Shown: positions 5,373 through 55,792 of the stretch, in pieces
How positions within the stretch are numbered: position 1 is the stretch's first letter
Layout: each line of letters starts with the position of its first letter
Source: an uncultured Pseudomonadales bacterium
Lineage (GTDB): Bacteria > Patescibacteriota > Microgenomatia > UBA1400 > PJMF01
Assembly: GCA_964583795.1 (NCBI GenBank)
Contig: CAZOWX010000003.1
Location: 23,978-87,977, forward strand
DNA length: 64,000 nucleotides
Reading direction: 5' to 3'
Program-made: the position numbers and the translations under genes
The notes under the pieces: generated by a model
The model's database searches: none
What the model saw: only the letters and a program-made list of their open reading frames with translations
Told to the model about the DNA's origin: nothing

Positions 5373-5909
5373 ATGAAACACAAAACATCTCAAAAGTTCC
5401 CTACCTGGCTAATCATCCTTGGGGTGATTGGAGCATTTCTTTTTATTGTTGTCCCCCTAGTTGTTTTTTTTCTGATAAAACCCGTGCAAATTGTAGGAAA
5501 AGCGATGGAACCAGGTTATCGCTTAGGTGAGTACTACCTGACCGATCGACAGGCCTACCTGTTTGCCACGCCAAAGCGATCTGATGTGGTGGTTTATCGC
5601 TACAATTTTGATGGAAAAAATGTGTTGATTATTTCTCGAGTTATTGGACTACCCGGTGATCGTATTGAAACAAAAAATGGTGTTGTGTGGATCAACGGAC
5701 AAAAGTTTGATGAACCATATCTTGAAGCAAATACAAAAACGACCATTGCGGGTCAGGATTTTAATCGAATTTTGTCTGATCAGGAGTACTTTGTATTGGG
5801 AGATAATCGAGAGCACAGTATGGATTCCAGAAAAAATGGCCCGATTAAGCAAAGTGATATCAAAGGAAAAGTCACGACTCGATACTGGCCAATTGAGAGA
5901 GTTGAGTAG
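5373..5909 (+). CDS. lepB: Signal peptidase I (S26) homolog with substituted catalytic dyad
   Basis: N-terminal TM anchor. Box C RSDVVVYRY, box D RVIGLPGD and box E GDNREHSMDSR are conserved. Box B reads GKAMEPG (Ala where Ser is expected) and box D is preceded by Ser where Lys is expected. Confidence 0.75.
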   Translation: MKHKTSQKFPTWLIILGVIGAFLFIVVPLVVFFLIKPVQIVGKAMEPGYRLGEYYLTDRQAYLFATPKRSDVVVYRYNFDGKNVLIISRVIGLPGDRIETKNGVVWINGQKFDEPYLEANTKTTIAGQDFNRILSDQEYFVLGDNREHSMDSRKNGPIKQSDIKGKVTTRYWPIERVE

Positions 5910-6070
5910 TGTACTATGTTATCGTGCTGGTGTTGTAAATTGATTAGTGAGACTTGTATCGTCTGTCAACTTTTGCCTTTTTACCTTTGACTTTTAACCT
6001 TTCCAACTTAAGTGTGACAACCCGGTACAATTTGATATAATCGACAAAATAGCGAAAGCGAAAGGACCGT

Positions 6071-6358
6071 ATGGCAGGTAACCCATTTAAAGCACTTGGC
6101 GATCTGAATCAACTGCGCAAGCAAGCACAGCAGATGCAAAAAGATTTAGCTGCAGAAGAAATAACCGTACAACGTGGTGACATTGTGGTGGTCATTAGCG
6201 GTGATCAAAAAATTCGTCAATTTAGTGTCCAGGGAATTACTTCTCAAGATGCTATTGATGTACTCAACGAAGCAATCAAGAAATCACAAGAGTTAGCCGC
6301 AAAGAAACTTCAATCCATGACTGGTGGTCTTGGTGGACTAATGGGACAAGGGAAGTAA
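6071..6358 (+). CDS. ybaB: Nucleoid-associated protein YbaB/EbfC
   Basis: 95 aa, MAGNPFKALGDLNQLRKQAQQMQKDL... typical of the YbaB family. The dnaX-ybaB-recR neighbourhood is preserved but interrupted by other genes. Confidence 0.85.
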   Translation: MAGNPFKALGDLNQLRKQAQQMQKDLAAEEITVQRGDIVVVISGDQKIRQFSVQGITSQDAIDVLNEAIKKSQELAAKKLQSMTGGLGGLMGQGK

Positions 6359-6407
6359 TCTTTAGGTGTCAGAGCGTCGGGTTTCAGGAGTCAGTGGCTA
6401 CCACTTT

Positions 6408-6468
6408 CGTCATCCTGAACAGTCTAGTGAGCTTGCGAACGAGACGGATTCAGGATCTAATGTCAGAA
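6408..6468 (+). repeat. Hairpin MITE-like repeat (CGTCATCCTGAACAGTCTAGTGAGC...GATTCAGGATCTAATGTCAGAA)
   Basis: Stem ATCCTGAA / TTCAGGAT. Related to the copies at 24577 and 55436. Confidence 0.55.
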
Positions 6469-6663
6469 TTCATTTTGTGCAGTCTTTCTGGTGCTTTTGC
6501 CACATAACAAAATAGAGTTATTGTCCAAGATCCTGCAACAAGTATGAATCTTGTGAATCCTGGCTCCTCATATTCCGCTATGGATTCACGATCTGATTGA
6601 ATTGATTAAAAAGTGTATCAGTTTAGTTCAGTCGAGGATGACGTACTTTTCTCTTCAACCATA

Positions 6664-6712
6664 TAACCACGTAACACCATAACCACATAACCACATAACC
6701 ACATAACAACCC
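6664..6712 (+). repeat. Tandem repeat of AACCACAT-type units
   Basis: Direct reading: cataaccacataaccacataaccacataac. Confidence 0.6.
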
Positions 6713-6903
6713 AGTAACTCTTTTAGATAGGTTTTCTTAGTAACAAAGCAACTAAACAACTAAGCAACAAACCAACCAACCAACCCCCACAGCCCCTAGA
6801 CACCGTCATTTTTCTATAGTACTTTGAGTCATTGCGATGCAACGGTTCAACCAGTCATTGCATTCCCTATATACTATATACTAACCCCTACATACTTATT
6901 CCC

Positions 6904-7848
6904 ATGCGACTCATCCTCACTGGCTCCATCGCCATCGATAGAATTCTAAACTTTAGCGGCAAGTACGCTGATGTTATTGCCCCTGATAAACTGCATGTAT
7001 TATCTCTTTCCGTGTTGGTCGATAACTTAGTTGATACTCGTGGGGGAATTGCCGCCAATATTGCATATGGATTAGCGCTACTGGGGGAAAAACCAGTGTT
7101 ATTGGGCAGTGTCGGTCATGATGCGAAAGGGTATATGAATGATTTGGCAGCGCTTGGGATCGATACTTCACATGTTCATTTTTCAAAGAAACCAACCGCC
7201 AGTTTTACGGTGATGACCGATACCGCTGATTGCCAAGTCGGTGGCTTTTATTCTGGCGCGATGAGTGACTCAAGTAGTTTGACGCTCGACGCTTTTGATC
7301 CGGCACGTGATTTTATAGTCATTTCGCCACATGACCCCAAAGCCATGGCGTTGCAGGTCAAGCAAGCGACTGATCGAGGGTTCCATTACTTTTATGACGT
7401 TGGTCAGCAAGTGAGTAATGTGCCTGATGAAGATGTAGTCAATGGAATTGCTAAAGCATCACTACTCATTGTGAATGATTATGAAATGGGAGTAATTGAA
7501 AAGAAAACGAAATTAACTCAAGCCCAGATTGTGAAAAATGTCCCTGTGGTAGTTATTACCTTAGGAGAAAAAGGATCGTTGATTTTTGATCATGGAAAAA
7601 AGCATGAAGTGAGTGCCGTTCCAGTGAAAAAAGTGGTTGACCCAACCGGTGCAGGCGATGCGTTTCGATCAGGATTTTTATTTGGCTATGTTCGTGATTG
7701 GCCAATTGTACAGTGTGCAAAGCTCGGCTCAATTGTGGCTACATTTGCGATTGCACAGCATGGAACACAAGAGCATCACTTTTCCAAAGCTGATATTGAA
7801 AAGATTGCGAAAAAGCAATATAAATTGGTTCTAGGTTCTAGGTTCTAG
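6904..7848 (+). CDS. PfkB-family carbohydrate/nucleoside kinase (adenosine-kinase-like)
   Basis: Ribokinase-like fold with the GG dipeptide and a C-terminal DPTGAGDAF anion-hole motif. The likely start is MRLILTG at 6904 rather than the upstream ORF start at 6832. The last five codons (LGSRF) are encoded by the (GGTTCTA)n array. Confidence 0.75.
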   Translation: MRLILTGSIAIDRILNFSGKYADVIAPDKLHVLSLSVLVDNLVDTRGGIAANIAYGLALLGEKPVLLGSVGHDAKGYMNDLAALGIDTSHVHFSKKPTASFTVMTDTADCQVGGFYSGAMSDSSSLTLDAFDPARDFIVISPHDPKAMALQVKQATDRGFHYFYDVGQQVSNVPDEDVVNGIAKASLLIVNDYEMGVIEKKTKLTQAQIVKNVPVVVITLGEKGSLIFDHGKKHEVSAVPVKKVVDPTGAGDAFRSGFLFGYVRDWPIVQCAKLGSIVATFAIAQHGTQEHHFSKADIEKIAKKQYKLVLGSRF

Positions 7849-7880
7849 GTTCTAGGTTCTAGGTTCTAGGTTCTAGGTTT
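7827..7880 (+). repeat. (GGTTCTA)n heptamer tandem array, about 7.5 units
   Basis: Direct reading. The same array recurs at 47671 and 57984. Confidence 0.8.
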
Positions 7881-8035
7881 GGTTGTTGCTTTGTTATTAA
7901 GAACTACTTACAGACAGATAAAGCAAATCGAAAAGAAGTGGCACTTGTCGCTTGAGGCTTGAAGCATGAAACTTGAAGCCAAAATAAAAGCTTGTAGCTT
8001 TTTTATTAACAAAATTTCTATTAAAAAGGACATTT

Positions 8036-22736: not shown

Positions 22737-23540
22737 ATGAGTAATCAGGTTTCAGGTTCCGGGTTTCAGGTTTCAGGGGATGCAATCCAAGCGCAACCTG
22801 TTGTGAATGGTGATGTAACAGTCAGTAGTCAGTTGTCAGTTGTTAGTGATCCCGCTACCGCTCAAGGTAACGGAGGAGCACAGCAGACGTCAGTCGTCAG
22901 TGGACAAGGGACAATTCAACAACCTAACACCCCAACCACTCTACAATCCATCCCTGATCCAGCTGTGGATGAAGCAGTAGCACAGGCGAAAAAAGTGCAG
23001 GATTTATTTGCGAGAAATGATGCGCTAGCGGCAACTGCGCAAACACCAGTTTCAAGTGTTCCAACATCAGTTTCGCCACTTCCTTCGAATCAAGACAATC
23101 AGATCCTGAAACAAGTTCAGGATGACGGGTCTTTTGCCTCACAATCAATGACAACTGATAACACACAACAATCAGCTAGCGATCAGCCAGCACTTCAGAA
23201 TCCAATAACCAATACCCAACAACCAATACCCAGCTCTGATGATCAAAAAAGCCCGCTTGATATTTTAGAAGAAATCCTGCGCAAAGAAGAAAAAAAACAA
23301 GCTGAAAAAGAAGCGGTTGTATCGCAAGAGGAAACTGAGAATCAAAAGCAACTTGAAGCACAGCAAGAAGCAGAAAATCAGGCATTGATTGAAGAAGCAC
23401 GAAAAAAAATGATTCAAGAAACCGCCACAGAAGAACAGAAACAACGAGACGCCATTCGTCAACAACAAATTGATGCGAATAAAGTACATAATCCGTACGA
23501 GATTCGGCAGTTGGAACATGTGAAGAGGGGGCAGGGGTAG
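22737..23540 (+). CDS. low-complexity Q/S/T-rich protein with a K/E-rich coiled-coil C-terminus
   Basis: The first codons are encoded by TCAGGT-type repeats, so the real start is uncertain. Confidence 0.35.
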   Translation: MSNQVSGSGFQVSGDAIQAQPVVNGDVTVSSQLSVVSDPATAQGNGGAQQTSVVSGQGTIQQPNTPTTLQSIPDPAVDEAVAQAKKVQDLFARNDALAATAQTPVSSVPTSVSPLPSNQDNQILKQVQDDGSFASQSMTTDNTQQSASDQPALQNPITNTQQPIPSSDDQKSPLDILEEILRKEEKKQAEKEAVVSQEETENQKQLEAQQEAENQALIEEARKKMIQETATEEQKQRDAIRQQQIDANKVHNPYEIRQLEHVKRGQG

Positions 23541-27847: not shown

Positions 27848-27900
27848 TCGTCAGAGGTTGGTTGTGTGCTGTCTGAGTAACAAGTTTCTGCCCCAACGCT

Positions 27901-28331
27901 CGTCATCCCGGCGAAGGCCGGGATCCATTTTTTTGTGTGACTCACTGAGTTGTTTTGCTCTTGCAGATGTCATTTTCATGTCACAATTTTGTAGTTTAAT
28001 CGCAATATGGACAAGAAAGGATATGTCTATATCTTGGCGTCAAAACCGTATGGAACCTTGTACATTGGGGTTACTTCGGATTTGATAGGGCGAGTGTGGG
28101 ATCATAAGCACAATATCATAAAGGGGTTTACACAAAAATATAACGTCCATATGCTTGTGTGGTATCAAGAGTCTGAACTAATAACTGATGCGATTTACAA
28201 GGAAAAGCAACTAAAAGAATGGCATAGAAATTGGAAAATACGACTCATTAAAGAAACAAATCCTTGTTGGAAAGATTTGTATGAAAAAATTATTGAATAG
28301 TACGTGGATCCCGGCCTTCGCCGGGATGACG
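27901..28331 (+). mobile_element. Candidate small mobile element: GIY-YIG nuclease gene flanked by perfect 27-bp terminal inverted repeats that are themselves hairpins
   Basis: Left TIR CGTCATCCCGGCGAAGGCCGGGATCCA (27901-27927) is the exact reverse complement of TGGATCCCGGCCTTCGCCGGGATGACG (28305-28331). The TIRs belong to the hairpin repeat family scattered through the window. Confidence 0.55.
28007..28300 (+). CDS. GIY-YIG nuclease-superfamily protein (YhbQ/UPF0213-like)
   Basis: GYVYIL...GTLYIGVTSDLIGRVWDHKHN...KYN...KEKQLKEW matches the standalone GIY-YIG (YhbQ) pattern. Confidence 0.85.
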   Translation: MDKKGYVYILASKPYGTLYIGVTSDLIGRVWDHKHNIIKGFTQKYNVHMLVWYQESELITDAIYKEKQLKEWHRNWKIRLIKETNPCWKDLYEKIIE

Positions 28332-28443
28332 AAGGTCACTGTGTCAAAAGAATTTATAGATCGCAATGTGATTTTCTTGTCCAAAGCGCAATCAAATTTC
28401 TACGCAACTAGTCAACCCCCCAACGAACTCCTATACTGAAACC

Positions 28444-29103
28444 ATGTCGCATTTTTCTCTGAATTTGCTGAAGTTTGCGGTGTTCTTTCTCCTACTCAAT
28501 GGTGGAGGAATGTGGTTTGTGTTGTATCGTGATCACCAGACAATACAGCGGTTGCAACAGCTCGATAATGCTCCTGCAGTCAAAGTAGAGCCAACTCCAA
28601 CGCCGCGTTCATTCCCGAGCATCGAGTCGCGACTCGATGTGCTGGAAAGTTCTCAAGAAGCGATACAGTCAAGAGTGAATGATCTTGAAGATTCGCAATC
28701 GAAAAGCAAATCAACAAAAACATATACTCAAAGCACGAGCTCAAAAAGCCCCAAAGAGTACACCCTGTATCTCGGTGAAGGCTCTACAGTGAGTCGCGAG
28801 TGGACTACGGTGCAGTCAACCACAATCTCAATTGATACCAGTAAGTACAAGGGCATTACTGCAGTGTACTTCGAGTCAGGTTTGTCGATTATTGGCGGAG
28901 AGGCATATGCACAACTGATTGACGCAGAGTCAGGAGCAATACTCACCAGTCGTGCTTTAGTGAGTAACACACCAAATCCGGTTTGGAAATCGATTCAGAT
29001 TAATTTGGAGTCAGGGAATCACATGTATGTGGTGCAGTTACGTTCATCGAGTGGGGAGCTAGCAACGCTCAGTGGGGCGAGGATACGGATTATGGCTGAG
29101 TGA
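28444..29103 (+). CDS. hypothetical membrane-anchored protein
   Basis: 219 aa with an N-terminal TM helix. Confidence 0.5.
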   Translation: MSHFSLNLLKFAVFFLLLNGGGMWFVLYRDHQTIQRLQQLDNAPAVKVEPTPTPRSFPSIESRLDVLESSQEAIQSRVNDLEDSQSKSKSTKTYTQSTSSKSPKEYTLYLGEGSTVSREWTTVQSTTISIDTSKYKGITAVYFESGLSIIGGEAYAQLIDAESGAILTSRALVSNTPNPVWKSIQINLESGNHMYVVQLRSSSGELATLSGARIRIMAE

Positions 29104-29119
29104 TTCTAGGGGTTAGGAA

Positions 29120-29182
29120 GTTAACAGTGGACAGTGGAACAGTTAATAGTTAGGTTGCAAGATGCAAGCTTCAAGTTGCAAG
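29120..29182 (+). repeat. GTTAAYAGTGGACAGT...TGCAAG-rich repeat family
   Basis: Related copies at 15949, 40519 and 55088 (+) and at 16313 and 58055 (-). Confidence 0.5.
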
Positions 29183-29316
29183 TAAACACCCTTCATACCC
29201 AGGAGTAATTCTGGGGATCAAAAGTACTTGTATTGTATCAAAAGCGAGAAAAATCGCCACCCTTGACTGAACTGATACACTCTTCAAATCAGCTCAGTCA
29301 GATCGTGAATTCCTGG

Positions 29317-29331
29317 TCCCGCACTGCGGGA
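29317..29331. repeat. 15-bp palindrome TCCCGCACTGCGGGA
   Basis: One of six copies. The others are at 585, 4538, 12664, 29539 and 47881. This copy lies in a ~75-bp unit duplicated at 29490-29560. Confidence 0.6.
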
Positions 29332-29398
29332 TGAGGAGCATGGCGATACGGGATAAGTCTTCAGTAGTCAGAAAACTTTCTTTATCCCAACCCCGTTT

Positions 29399-29434
29399 GT
29401 CATCCCGAATTCGATTCGGGATCTAAAGTCAGAG
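29399..29434 (+). repeat. Hairpin MITE-like repeat, core copy (GTCATCCCGAATTCGATTCGGGATCTAAAGTCAGAG)
   Basis: Near-identical to 13524 and 55257. Forms an inverted pair with 29667-29704. Confidence 0.65.
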
Positions 29435-29666
29435 CTCTTCATCGAAGCGGGGAAAAACGATCCTTCTAGATATTGAAAAGGTTTTTCAAAAGTGAGAAAA
29501 ATCGCCACCCTTGACTGAACTGATACACTAATTTCTGGTCCCGCACTGCGGGATGAGGAGCCAGAATTCGCAAGATCAATACTGTTGTTTCAGGATCTGG
29601 CATGGGAAGCCCTTGTCGGAAGCCAAAAAAGAAACCTCTCTGCTTCAGTTCTCAATAAGAGTAGAT

Positions 29667-29704
29667 CTCTGACTTTAGATCCCGATTTTCATCGGGATGA
29701 CGAC
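29667..29704 (-). repeat. Hairpin MITE-like repeat, inverted orientation (CTCTGACTTTAGATCCCGATTTTCATCGGGATGACGAC)
   Basis: Shares the extended flank CTCAATAAGAGTA with the copy at 55436. Confidence 0.55.
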
Positions 29705-29792
29705 TTTTTATTTTTCTTGCTTTCGAGTAAGGATTTTTTATTCAACAACACACCAATCCAACCACATAACAACTTTTCGAAAGCAAAAAAAA

Positions 29793-29839
29793 CGTCATCC
29801 TTGATTTTGCATGTTGAACTTTAAATCAAGGATGACGAG
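29793..29839. repeat. Palindromic hairpin repeat (CGTCATCCTTGATTT - 14 nt - AAATCAAGGATGACG)
   Basis: 15-bp inverted arms carrying the family termini. A related fragment AATCAAGGATGGCGA lies at 29943. Confidence 0.55.
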
Positions 29840-29998
29840 TCTAACTATCAACAACTCAACTACCCAACTACCCAACTACTTAACAACGTTTCTATAGCGA
29901 AAAAATCGCCACCCCTGATAACGAAAGTGTCAATTCAAATCAAGGATGGCGAATGTAACTATCCAACTAAGCAACCAAGCAACTGACTAACTACTGAA

Positions 29999-30667
29999 TT
30001 ATTGCCCCGCTGACTTTTTCATCATCTCTTCAAATTGCTGTTTTTCTTCTGCACTCATTCCCTCTTGTGCACTTTCTGCTGCATTTTTCATCATGACACT
30101 AAAATCAGCAAACTTGACGTTAGCTGGTGGTACAAACTCACTGTCACTAACGATTGTCGGATTACAATCTAGTTTCATGCCTTCATTTTCCAGTTTTTCG
30201 ATTTCTTCTTCACTGGAGAAATCAGGAGTCTGAGGGGCATTTTTGATCGCGTCCTTTGCTTGATCTGCAGATTTCTTCTGCTCTTCTTCAGATGGGATGG
30301 CCATTTTGAAGCCTTCATTTTTGGTAGAGTCCCAAGTGTACAGGAAAGACTCGTCTACGATCATCTCACCGGTGGTCGCTTTCTGATCATTACTTGTAAC
30401 GATCCCTGACATGTGCATTTTTTTACCTTTGGCAACATACTGCGAGGTAGTGTTGGTTTTAGTGTCGGTCATAGTGCATTTCAGTCCACCACCAACTTTC
30501 AGTGCATCAGTCCAACTTTTGAACTTATTTGTGTCTGAATTTTGTGCTGCAGTAGTTGGTGTTTGATCTTGAGTGGGAGTCGTGGTGGTAGTAGTTGATT
30601 TGGAAGTACAGCCAGCTAACACTACTGAGCCGACAAAAACGCTGGTAATGAGCGCGTATTTTTTCAT
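29999..30667 (-). CDS. Lipoprotein (hypothetical)
   Basis: Lipobox LAGC after the signal peptide MKKYALITSVFVGSVVLAGC. T/Q-rich linker. The ORF start was trimmed to MKKYA. Confidence 0.6.
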   Translation of the reverse strand: MKKYALITSVFVGSVVLAGCTSKSTTTTTTPTQDQTPTTAAQNSDTNKFKSWTDALKVGGGLKCTMTDTKTNTTSQYVAKGKKMHMSGIVTSNDQKATTGEMIVDESFLYTWDSTKNEGFKMAIPSEEEQKKSADQAKDAIKNAPQTPDFSSEEEIEKLENEGMKLDCNPTIVSDSEFVPPANVKFADFSVMMKNAAESAQEGMSAEEKQQFEEMMKKSAGQ

Positions 30668-47426: not shown

Positions 47427-47663
47427 ATGTCAAAGCTTTTTCAAAAGAAACGTCGAAAAAACTTGCCTCAGGTTAAAAAAGCACCCGCAAGTTTGAGTTT
47501 CGACTACAAAGATGCTCGCACTTTGCAGCGCTACCTAAGTGAACATGGTGCTATTGAGGGGCGCGATCGGACAGGGTTATCAAATAAACAACAACGTCAG
47601 CTATCTCGAGAGATTAAACGTGCTCGACACCTGGGGATGATGCAGTTTACGCAGACACTGTGA
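47427..47663 (+). CDS. rpsR: 30S ribosomal protein S18
   Basis: ...FDYKDARTLQRYLSEHGAIEGRDRTGLSNKQQRQLSREIKRARHLGMM... Confidence 0.9.
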   Translation: MSKLFQKKRRKNLPQVKKAPASLSFDYKDARTLQRYLSEHGAIEGRDRTGLSNKQQRQLSREIKRARHLGMMQFTQTL

Positions 47664-47670
47664 TAGATTA

Positions 47671-47724
47671 GGTTCTAGGTTCTAGGTTCTAGGTTCTAGG
47701 TTCTAGGTTCTAGGTTCTAGGTTT
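47671..47724 (+). repeat. (GGTTCTA)n heptamer tandem array, about 7.5 units, directly after the rpsR stop
   Basis: Direct reading. Followed by GTTTTGGGCGGAGAGTGTAGAGTG, which resembles the tail of the double-hairpin repeat. Confidence 0.8.
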
Positions 47725-47880
47725 TGGGCGGAGAGTGTAGAGTGCGAAATGTGGATTATAGATTGTGGATGATGGATTTTTTGTACTTGGCTTGAGAGAA
47801 TAGACTTGTAGCTTGTCATTTTGACAGGCTCAATGTAAAAGCTTGCTTGCCCGCCGTAGCTTTACTGTGTCCTCTCGTAG

Positions 47881-50425: not shown

Positions 50426-50474
50426 CTAGGGATTAGTGCTTGACTTGATGAGTGTGGGTTGTTGCAATTGATTC

Positions 50475-50541
50475 TTGCGGCTTGCGGCTTGCGGCTTGCG
50501 GCTTGCGGCTTGCGGCTTGCGGCTTGCGGCTTGCGGCTTGT
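50475..50541 (+). repeat. (GCGGCTT)n tandem array, about 9 units
   Basis: Direct reading, immediately upstream of mreB. Confidence 0.8.
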
Positions 50542-50552
50542 AGAATGGGGCT

Positions 50553-54998: not shown

Positions 54999-55167
54999 GA
55001 TATTTTAGGTGTCAGGTGTCCCTCCTTCGCTGAAGCTGCGGCGGGCGCGGCAGGTGTCAGCAGTTAGCGACTAGCGACTAGGGGTTAGTGGAACAGTGGA
55101 CAGTTAATAGTAGACAGTGATCAGTAGTCAGGATTCAGGGTTTAGGCCTTAGGGAATAGAAATACTT

Positions 55168-55228
55168 GTCATCCCCCGTCTCTTTGGTGGTCAGGCCTGA
55201 TGTCCATCGGGGGATCTAAAGTCAGAGC
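55168..55228 (+). repeat. Hairpin MITE-like repeat (GTCATCCCCCGTCTC...CCATCGGGGGATCTAAAGTCAGAGC)
   Basis: Stem ATCCCCCG / CGGGGGAT. Confidence 0.5.
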
Positions 55229-55256
55229 ACTTACTCTAAAGCAAGAAAACTAAAAA

Positions 55257-55295
55257 GTCGTCATCCCGAATTCGATTCGGGATCTAAAGTCAGAG
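55257..55295 (+). repeat. Hairpin MITE-like repeat, core copy (GTCGTCATCCCGAATTCGATTCGGGATCTAAAGTCAGAG)
   Basis: Near-identical to 13524 and 29399. Confidence 0.65.
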
Positions 55296-55435
55296 TTCCC
55301 GATCGAAAGTGCAATACCCATTGTTATCCGGCGAACTCGTGCCCTAAGGGTAAAACAGGATCTATCTCATCGAACAGAAAATGCAACTCAAAAGCAAAAA
55401 AAAAGATCTGTTTCAATTCTCAATAAAAGTACCTA

Positions 55436-55498
55436 TCTGACTTTAGATCCTGAATCCGTCTTGCTCATATCTTCGCTAGACTGTTCAGGATGACGACT
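55436..55498 (-). repeat. Hairpin MITE-like repeat, inverted orientation (TCTGACTTTAGATCCTGAATCCGTC...CTGTTCAGGATGACGAC)
   Basis: Inverted relative to 55257. Related to 6408 and 24577. Confidence 0.55.
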
Positions 55499-55792
55499 TT
55501 TTATTTTCTCTGCTTTCGAGTTAAATTTTCTTACTTTAACGGTTTAGATGTGGTCATTTTTTCAACCTTGATACTTACAATTTAAAAACATGCAATTTTT
55601 ACTGACCAGTAATATCAATTGAAGTGGTAACGTTTGTGTCACTTGCAACCTGCAACTTGCATCTTGTAACCACTACAGAGCTTGCAACTTGTAGCTATTA
55701 AAATCCCTAATCTTGGAATTTTTGACTTGGAATTTGGAATTTGCTTTGAGCAATGTCACTTTCTTGTCAGAATTGATGTGTATGATCAACTC

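Follow-up and report, generated by a model that had tools for sequence, protein, structure and literature searches.

The DNA analysed here (the window) is a 64-kb stretch of the genome of an uncultured member of the Patescibacteria (assembly GCA_964583795.1, contig CAZOWX010000003.1, positions 23,978-87,977), and all coordinates are counted from its first base. Between two convergent genes, one for a 219-aa protein and the other for a lipoprotein-like product, lies a spacer of 895 bp (29104-29998), the second-longest intergenic gap of the window, which an earlier note made from the bases alone had described as a patchwork of nested repeats. The only GIY-YIG gene of the window sits 0.8 kb upstream of this spacer, between inverted repeats. 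Genes of the nuclease ssnA are typically flanked by hairpin motifs known as SRMs (PMC11893778), and the spacer appears to be assembled largely from hairpins of the same kind.

Every repeat listed in the earlier note was recovered within a few bases of the position given for it and far above chance. The module at 29120, GTTAACAGTGGACAGTGGAACAGTTAATAGTTAG, runs into 4.3 copies of GTTGCAA (29154-29183, by Tandem Repeats Finder, TRF) and has related copies at 15948, 40518, and 55086. The duplicated unit of ∼75 bp (29238-29281 plus 29308-29339 against 29486-29561) is 97-98% identical between its copies (blastn E 6e-17 and 9e-10), the first of which is interrupted by 26 extra nt while the second is contiguous. 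The 15-bp palindrome TCCCGCACTGCGGGA, at 29317-29331 and 29539-29553, occurs six times in the window against an expectation of 0. The core hairpin at 29399-29434, which recurs without a mismatch over 33-36 nt at 13525-13557 and 55260-55295, has an inverted partner at 29667-29702, their arms being 96% complementary, and the palindrome at 29793-29837 has perfect 15-nt arms and folds as DNA at -14.7 kcal/mol (z = -6.4). The head variants CGCCACCC (29255, 29503, and 29907) and GGATGGCG (29944-29951) were likewise found, together with a 114-nt tandem duplication (29758-29963; 1.8 copies, 76% matches) that had not been listed. No open reading frame (ORF) had been thought plausible, and we agree: the spacer offers only read-throughs of hairpins, 45-79 aa long and free of Pfam matches.

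The spacer parses into six SRM-type units and low-complexity modules with a period of 7-8 nt (Table 1). Two units (U2 and U4) are canonical and mutually inverted, two (U1 and U3) are degenerate with long loops, and two (U5 and U6) are tandem double-headed palindromes. The loop of U1 holds the first copy of the 15-bp palindrome and is closed by the stem ATCGCCA/TGGCGAT, the whole folding as DNA at -22.1 kcal/mol (z = -4.5); its head and loop, like those of U3, are homologous to the ends of long-loop elements at 6642(-) and 12707(-), and U3 is homologous to 6541-6643(-). U2 fits the covarying frame described below (DNA hairpin -8.0 kcal/mol, z = -3.0), as a DNA hairpin U4 reaches -7.6 kcal/mol (z = -3.2), and U4 keeps the conserved A-rich 5′ extension and matches 1965-1988 and 55230-55269. 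The composite cassette that these two units delimit has sister cassettes at 1965-2139, 6395-6655, and 55230-55525, with which it shares its ends and ∼45 nt of right sub-terminal sequence and not the interiors. Compared with the sister at 55230-55525 it has ∼170 nt extra, and because U3 supplies most of these, the nesting is real. Heads of the CGCCACCC type are confined to the spacer (3 copies) apart from one coding match in the window, which indicates local duplication of one variant. The CAAC octamer modules at the right end of the spacer are GTTG-rich when read in the direction of the lipoprotein mRNA and have copies at 6679-6792, 16262-16321, 22905, and 61502; tandem low-complexity modules of heptamers or octamers stand at gene ends throughout the window, the same motifs recurring at distant loci.

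Table 1. Features of the spacer, of the neighbouring nuclease cassette, and of related loci (window coordinates unless a locus is named).
Feature	Position	Strand	Remarks
219-aa gene, function not assigned	28444..29103	+	stop borders spacer on left
Lipoprotein-like gene	29999..30667/30724	-	signal peptide MKKYALITSVFVGSVVLAGC; stop borders spacer on right
Periodic (7-8 nt) low-complexity modules	29120..29183	+	AACAGTGG-type, then GTTGCAA x4 (TRF); directly after stop of 219-aa gene
Small hairpin	29198-29215		
U1, degenerate long-loop SRM-type unit	29238..29347	+	5′ extension TCAAAAGCGAGAAAAAT, head CGCCACCC (GTC to GCC)
Hairpin spacer	29350-29388		
U2, canonical SRM-like unit	29399..29434	+	left end of 0.33-kb composite cassette; GTCATCC-CGAA-ttcga-TTCG-GGATCTAAAGTCAGAG
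U3, second degenerate CGCCACCC long-loop unit	29486..29583	+	97% identical to U1, without 26-nt block; inside composite cassette
U4, canonical SRM-like unit	29667..29731	-	right end of composite cassette; CTCGAAAGCAAGAAAAATAAAAAGTC-GTCATCC-CGAtgaaaaTCG-GGATCTAAAGTCAGAG
U5, double-headed palindrome	29777..29837	-	CGTCATCCTTGATTT, 15-nt loop, AAATCAAGGATGACG; 100% complementary
U6, diverged tandem copy of U5	29892..29951	-	CGCCACCCCTGA...TCAAGGATGGCG; within period-114 tandem repeat 29758-29963
CAAC-rich octamer modules	29849..29998	+	CAACTACC x3.9 at 29849-29879; CAACTAAG x2.6 at 29964-29984 (TRF)
SRM-ssnA-SRM cassette	27900..28332	+	97-aa GIY-YIG gene 28007..28300 between inverted repeats
ssn between grpE and dnaK	L091 9972-10331		Candidatus Doudnabacteria, GCA_041389225.1
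ssn between sucC and sucD	L092 9970-10331		GCA_013298695.1
CAAC-rich modules elsewhere	6679-6792, 16262-16321, 61502		
GGTTCTA xN	7813-7894, 47657-47738, 57971-58038		
CTTGCGG xN	50460-50550		
CCTGAAA xN	11700-11727, 22747-22777		
CGAATGnnAA modules	43794, 44477, 47291		
tRNA-like element	13647-13718	+	both ends of Rfam tmRNA model, mRNA-like middle missing; 24.8 bits, E 8e-8, below gathering
tRNA-like element	14123-14189	-	weak tRNA-Sec match, 27.3 bits

The units of the spacer belong to a family that is spread over the window. When every GTCATCC was inspected in context, about two dozen copies fitted one frame, consisting of an A-rich 5′ extension, the head CGTCATCC, a variable stem of 3-5 nt, a loop of 3 to ∼45 nt, the complementary stem, and GGATCYRA, which is often trailed by AAGTCAGAG. 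The published SRM pattern, HGTCWYN(0-2)YYVSBRHN(0-5)WNVSBRGN(0-2)RNCYNB (PMC11893778), proved too strict for this lineage, with 2 matches only, and we therefore adopted a frame based on anchors together with a count of covariation. The window holds 20 copies of the 8-mer head where 1.2 are expected, and none of 100 shuffles reached 20. Among 19 copies aligned by their anchors, 95% of stem cells are paired, a figure that drops to 20-59% in slid registers, and the four inner stem pairs covary (28 double-sided changes against 8.7 in shuffles, with 0 of 500 reaching this). The GTC before the palindrome is invariant, and the C after it is kept in at least 90% of the aligned hairpins. Intergenic sequence makes up 17% of the window and holds 21 of the 30 GTCATCC heads, the long gaps being those that carry them, and an A-run, read as a T-run on the opposite strand, precedes most SRM heads. 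These are thus oriented, SRM-like hairpins with a CGTC 5′ flank and a 3′ C, over-represented and mostly intergenic. Inside the spacer itself, none of the units matches the published pattern, U2 and U4 departing from it at stem positions (CGAA/TTCG) and U1 and U3 in loop length, and for this reason we file them as SRM-like variants rather than strict SRMs. Inverted pairs of heads bound segments of 45, 150, 236, 289, 304, 237, and 431 bp, the last of which carries ssnA. Other SRM cassettes lie directly upstream of dprA (cassettes 55168-55525; gene 55682..56905) and on both sides of recR (11544-11691 and 12421-12707; gene 11730..12332), genes whose products process single-stranded DNA for recombination. 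Scans of JGI metagenome contigs for the hairpin subtype tailed with AAAGTCAGAG returned 0 matches.

SsnA is a 94-aa single-domain GIY-YIG nuclease that binds and cuts the Neisseria Transformation Sequence (NTS), CGTCATTCCCGCGMAVGCGGGAATCYRG, as single-stranded DNA only; cleavage depends on the three bases (GTC) ahead of the palindrome and binding on the C that follows it (PMC11893778, Chenal et al. 2025, Nat Commun). The GIY-YIG gene of the window encodes 97 aa, with the Pfam domain at residues 4-78 (E 9.6e-13) and no other, and lies between 28-bp inverted repeats, TCGTCATCCCGGCGAAGGCCGGGATCCA, that are 100% complementary (27900-27927 and 28305-28332). It is at these repeats that the two strict SRM matches of the window fall, 27901-27928(+) and 28304-28331(-), where shuffles gave a mean of 0.19. 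For the protein comparison the gonococcal SsnA ortholog was used as a stand-in for SsnA of N. meningitidis; its locus came from NZ_CP119140.1 and NZ_CP119142.1, two 2.17-Mb Neisseria gonorrhoeae chromosomes that are filed as 'plasmids' in PLSDB. The tblastn match of the window protein to the N. gonorrhoeae chromosome had E 3e-26, and the BLASTP alignment with the 94-aa gonococcal ORF, which sits amid 16 NTS copies in 3.3 kb at an alternation of ∼75 nt, showed 56% identity with no gaps (E 1e-36). Window residues Y8, Y19, and E66 stand in register with gonococcal Y6, Y17, and E64, which were the targets of mutagenesis in the SsnA study, where E < 1e-10 to Neisseria SsnA serves as the criterion of homology (PMC11893778). 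Since the E values lie far below this threshold and the catalytic residues align, the 97-aa protein is an SsnA homologue by that criterion, and cleavage activity is predicted for it.

The family to which this nuclease belongs is very large (>8000 database proteins match, the best 58-69% identical and across phyla), and a PDB sequence search with the 97-aa protein gave noise only. In exact-protein look-ups the lipoprotein and GIY-YIG products had no record, and the 219-aa protein led only to the strain contig described below. Homologues of the nuclease with 64-65% identity occur as SRM-flanked cassettes inside conserved operons of two other genomes, one of them a Candidatus Doudnabacteria metagenome-assembled genome (MAG) (Table 1). 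In each, the strict pattern finds one flanking copy within 20 kb, and its counterpart on the other side was recognised by eye; the placement would fit the insertion of ssn as a discrete cassette.

Relatives were compared at four syntenic loci (L082, L085, L086, and L090), to which orthologs of the genes on either side (49-59% identity) led. In L082, L086, and L090 the gene for cysteinyl-tRNA synthetase (CysRS) is followed by the 219-aa ortholog, a 5-formyltetrahydrofolate (5-FTHF) cyclo-ligase gene, and, on the opposite strand, the lipoprotein ortholog, with spacers of 3-20 bp. The cyclo-ligase gene, of 549-618 bp, thus stands at the position of the mosaic (6673-7221, 6655-7272, and 5686-6234, respectively); L085 has no cyclo-ligase and instead a 295-bp spacer with ordinary terminators. 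Spacers at this site measure 13-295 bp in the relatives. None of the four loci has a GIY-YIG gene. SRMs, whether strict or relaxed, were missing from the three that were scanned for hairpins (L082, L085, and L086), and in none of the four relatives is GTCATCC more frequent than background. The spacer between CysRS and the 219-aa gene measures 49 bp in L082 against 596 bp in the window, where it holds the 433-bp ssnA cassette, and the 49 bp align with the outer parts of the 596. Because the relatives lack both repeats and ssnA, and L082 has the short spacer, we conclude that both were gained in the lineage of the window. A search of GTDB genomes gave no match for the 219-aa protein and CysRS matches of at most 53% identity, without the repeats, the best being in Patescibacteria and Daviesbacteria MAGs. 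The ∼520 bp by which the window exceeds the 49-bp spacer are bracketed by an 8-bp direct repeat, CCCCAACG (27891-27898 and 28418-28425), which could be a target duplication or a chance occurrence in CAAC-rich sequence.

Variation is also seen at close range. Logan contig L001 (SRR33126934), which begins and ends exactly in hairpins, represents a near-identical strain with 3 differences in 1215 bp over ssnA and the 219-aa gene. In it, 196 bp of the window (29117-29312, comprising the low-complexity module and the left two-thirds of U1) are swapped for 131 bp, of which the first part is unrelated and the last ∼65% identical with an intact GTCATCC head, after which identity resumes; a module of the GGGGTTG/GGGGTTA type follows the 219-aa gene. 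Such a pattern marks the replacement of a whole segment and not point mutation. The base-for-base conservation that the earlier note had set against an accumulation of insertions is therefore not found: the region is not conserved in the four syntenic relatives and is partly replaced in the near-identical strain.

Two of the units appear well suited to end transcription of the lipoprotein gene. The minus-strand RNA of U6 starts 48 nt past the lipoprotein stop and forms a 14-bp stem with closing G.U pairs, followed by an A and a run of six U; it folds at -27.1 kcal/mol (z = -5.1) against -8.2 kcal/mol for the plus-strand DNA, and the 3′ part of the hairpin with its T-run was also picked up by a terminator scan. 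On the same strand the RNA of U5 reaches -21.7 kcal/mol (z = -5.1) and runs directly into an 8-U tail. The T-to-C changes in the head of U6 yield G.U pairs on the minus-strand RNA and C.A mismatches on the plus strand, a modelled pairing pattern that fits selection for a minus-strand terminator. From these folds, U6 is likely the primary terminator of the lipoprotein gene and U5 a second terminator-like hairpin. Uptake-sequence pairs and Correia elements of Neisseria and Haemophilus are genome-wide inverted repeats that double as Rho-independent terminators, and U5 and U6 may be likened to them. On the plus strand the scan found no terminator for ∼560 nt after the 219-aa gene and none ahead of U4.

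The suggestion that the region might be a structured RNA locus stands only in so far as these two palindromic units make good terminators, and otherwise fails. No Rfam model reached its gathering score anywhere in the window, and a permissive search of the spacer returned only meaningless eukaryotic miRNA and snoRNA hairpin models (E ≥ 0.1; the best at 25 bits, with a gathering score of 83), so that the accumulation of hairpins proposed in the earlier note survives this check. ARAGORN called no tRNA or tmRNA in the window. Elsewhere in it, two tRNA-like elements of ∼70 nt, neither of them called by that program, face each other 404 nt apart (Table 1), and to judge by their covariance-model matches they look like minigenes of the tRNA-like domain of tmRNA alone.

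Taken together, the evidence leads us to read the spacer, with a probability of roughly three in four, as a lineage-specific intergenic mosaic of SRMs of the NTS/dRS3 type, their decayed derivatives, and low-complexity modules, a counterpart of the Neisseria intergenic mosaic elements (NIMEs) with an SRM-bracketed ssnA 0.8 kb upstream of it. On this interpretation, the canonical units U2 and U4 would fold into hairpins once the DNA is single-stranded, as in transforming DNA, replication, or repair; the 97-aa nuclease would bind such a hairpin and nick the strand a few nt 5′ of the CGTCAT head; and nicking would fragment the single strand and so modulate recombination around the adjacent lipoprotein gene. 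U2 and U4 retain the GTC, the hairpin, and the C, and are thus plausible substrates. In contrast, U1, U3, and U6 carry GCC for GTC, and U5 and U6 carry G or nothing for the C after the palindrome; because these losses bear on cleavage and binding, respectively, the four units are predicted from the Neisseria mutagenesis to be disarmed, poor substrates. U6 and U5 would have been kept as Rho-independent terminators of the lipoprotein gene, and the mosaic would occupy the position that the 5-FTHF cyclo-ligase gene has in three of four relatives. The nuclease-hairpin pair, or recombination among copies, is the probable cause of the duplications, the nesting, and the replacement between strains. 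DprA, SSB, RecR, TopA, and Fpg are encoded in the window, and the cell thus has machinery for incoming single-stranded DNA.

Several observations weigh against this interpretation. Only the two hairpins flanking ssnA match the published SRM pattern, the rest differing in stem or loop (to ∼45 nt). In Neisseria, where SsnA restricts recombination of transforming DNA, stem sequence affects activity, so that the CGAA/TTCG subtype may escape the local nuclease. The majority of units in the mosaic are predicted non-substrates, the action of the nuclease in this organism is itself predicted from homology, and our view covers 64 kb of the genome, beyond which other ssn paralogues or enzymes may be encoded. 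Moreover, the spacer has 4 exact heads in 0.9 kb, a density not significantly above that of other long gaps, which makes the locus a large example of a genome-wide phenomenon rather than a special hot spot. The earlier proposal of an insertion hot spot or graveyard for the hairpin family is supported as regards the accumulation of hairpins, with the qualification that not all units are dead, U2 and U4 being intact; insertion, as opposed to local duplication or recombination, is a putative mechanism.

The spacer might instead consist simply of terminators or regulatory RNA hairpins of two convergent genes, the similarity among units being that of terminator families, with no system acting at the level of DNA. 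We regard this account as possible though doubtful. It draws on the excellent minus-strand folds and U-tails of U6 and U5, on the preservation of U6 pairing through G.U on the minus strand alone, and on the A-runs before most SRM heads, but in the canonical units 6 nt separate stem from T-run, the 219-aa gene goes without a plus-strand terminator for ∼560 nt, and some units stand upstream of genes or flank ssnA as inverted pairs. Nor would termination account for the invariant GTC and C flanks, which are not part of the stem, or for U1-U4, 60% of the spacer. Far less probable is a structured non-coding RNA gene or the decayed remnant of a 5-FTHF cyclo-ligase. Although several segments fold better than shuffles, and a gene of 549-618 bp stands at this position in three of four relatives, no Rfam family reached gathering score and the permissive matches were noise, while the region is absent from relatives and partly replaced in the near-identical strain. 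The cyclo-ligase pseudogene was ruled out, neither tblastn nor a profile HMM of three cyclo-ligases finding residual similarity in the spacer in any frame (best -1.9 bits); the 64-kb window has no copy of the gene.

Slightly lower still in our estimate is an array of REP/BIME palindromes with a RAYT (IS200/IS605-like), or a MITE family moved by a DDE transposase. Among 65 of the 66 window ORFs of at least 80 aa that were scanned with Pfam (one 83-aa ORF was left out), there was no transposase, RAYT, or integrase; the head is CGTCAT rather than of the GTAG type of REPs, and the gene bracketed by repeats encodes a GIY-YIG enzyme, not one of the HUH/Y1 group, even though extragenic palindromes in mosaic arrays with inverted pairs do have the general look of such a system. 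Transposition by the nuclease itself would extend the mosaic interpretation rather than replace it: the SRM-bounded cassettes would be non-autonomous, MITE-like transposons, and SRM-ssnA-SRM the autonomous element with the nuclease as transposase. We consider this unlikely. Inverted head pairs do bound segments of 45-431 bp, the longest with ssnA; cassettes have sub-terminal sequences and the outer A-rich extension in common; some copies match without a difference over 33-36 nt; relatives are without cassettes and ssnA; elsewhere ssn cassettes sit inside conserved operons (grpE/ssn/dnaK and sucC/ssn/sucD); and the authors of PMC11893778 remarked on an architecture like that of insertion sequences (IS). 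However, no convincing target-site duplication was found, the sole candidate being the weak 8-bp repeat at the ssnA insertion, no pair of empty and filled sites was recovered, strand-transfer activity is not known for Ssn, and the cassette interiors are mostly unrelated, like the RS modules of NIMEs. More unlikely again is the full version of the idea, in which SRM-ssnA-SRM is an active IS-like element mobilised by its 97-aa nuclease, and the cassettes of 45-330 bp are MITE derivatives spread by nested transposition, some of them domesticated as terminators; if true, it would constitute a new mechanistic class of prokaryotic DNA transposon.

If the spacer is indeed an SRM mosaic, the Ssn nuclease and its hairpin repeats would have proliferated in an ultra-small, probably episymbiotic genome of the Patescibacteria, a new phylum for a system that is enriched in host-associated bacteria (PMC11893778). 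At least 24 units in 64 kb would extrapolate to several hundred per Mb. Such repeats would build NIME-like mosaics that lengthen intergenic spacers, vary between near-identical strains, and supply terminators, and they would explain breaks in assemblies of this lineage, such as the Logan contig that ends in hairpins, as well as yield spurious small ORFs. The copies also form a natural mutagenesis series, with free inner stems, loops of 3-45 nt, and an invariant GTC, which could serve to define recognition by Ssn.

Among known systems, Correia elements are set apart by their TA duplications and by 26-bp inverted repeats with no relation to the hairpins of the window, and, in contrast to uptake sequences, nothing points to the window motifs as uptake signals. 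The REP/BIME-RAYT systems share with our locus extragenic palindromes recognised as single-stranded hairpins, their mosaic clusters, and a cognate gene between inverted copies of the repeat, but differ in that the enzyme here is of the GIY-YIG type and not an HUH tyrosine transposase, in the head motif, and in the lack of a RAYT in the window. Closer are the NIMEs, intergenic arrays of 200-2700 bp in which dRS3/NTS hairpins alternate with RS modules of 30-160 bp beside surface-protein genes (PMC3898611). The spacer likewise combines, in 895 bp, six hairpin units in both orientations with modules, next to a lipoprotein gene; it is variable between strains, and its components are shared with loci at 1965, 6541, 12661, 13525, 15948, 40518, and 55086-55521. 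Kinship of its modules with the RS modules of Neisseria is, however, unlikely: blastn of the 895 bp gave no match in plasmid or phage collections, the former including the two gonococcal chromosomes. It further differs from NIMEs in having degenerate and double-headed terminator derivatives and 7-8-nt tandem modules, and in a spacing less regular than the ∼75-nt alternation of the gonococcus.

The closest likeness is to the NTS/SRM hairpins and their nuclease. Both share one frame, CGTCA-TTCCCGCG-loop-CGCGGGAA-TCYRG in the NTS and CGTCA-TCCNNNN-loop-NNNNGGA-TCYRA in the window, the GTC and C conserved in the window being the bases critical in Neisseria, and in both a single-domain nuclease of ∼95 aa is encoded by a gene bracketed by the motif, which is over-represented and mostly intergenic. 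The window system differs in its host, an uncultured lineage of the Patescibacteria (Candidate Phyla Radiation, CPR), and in a nuclease whose activity is predicted. Its four inner stem pairs vary with compensation and its loops range from 3 to ∼45 nt, so that most copies miss the published SRM pattern; its units are also extended on the 5′ side by conserved A-rich sequence (TCGAAAGCAAGAAAAA...) and tailed at the 3′ end by AAAGTCAGAG. We thus take the spacer to be a further example of the repeat-plus-nuclease system already described in Neisseria in 2025, with freely varying but compensated stems, long loops, conserved extensions, and double-headed terminator derivatives as its variant features.

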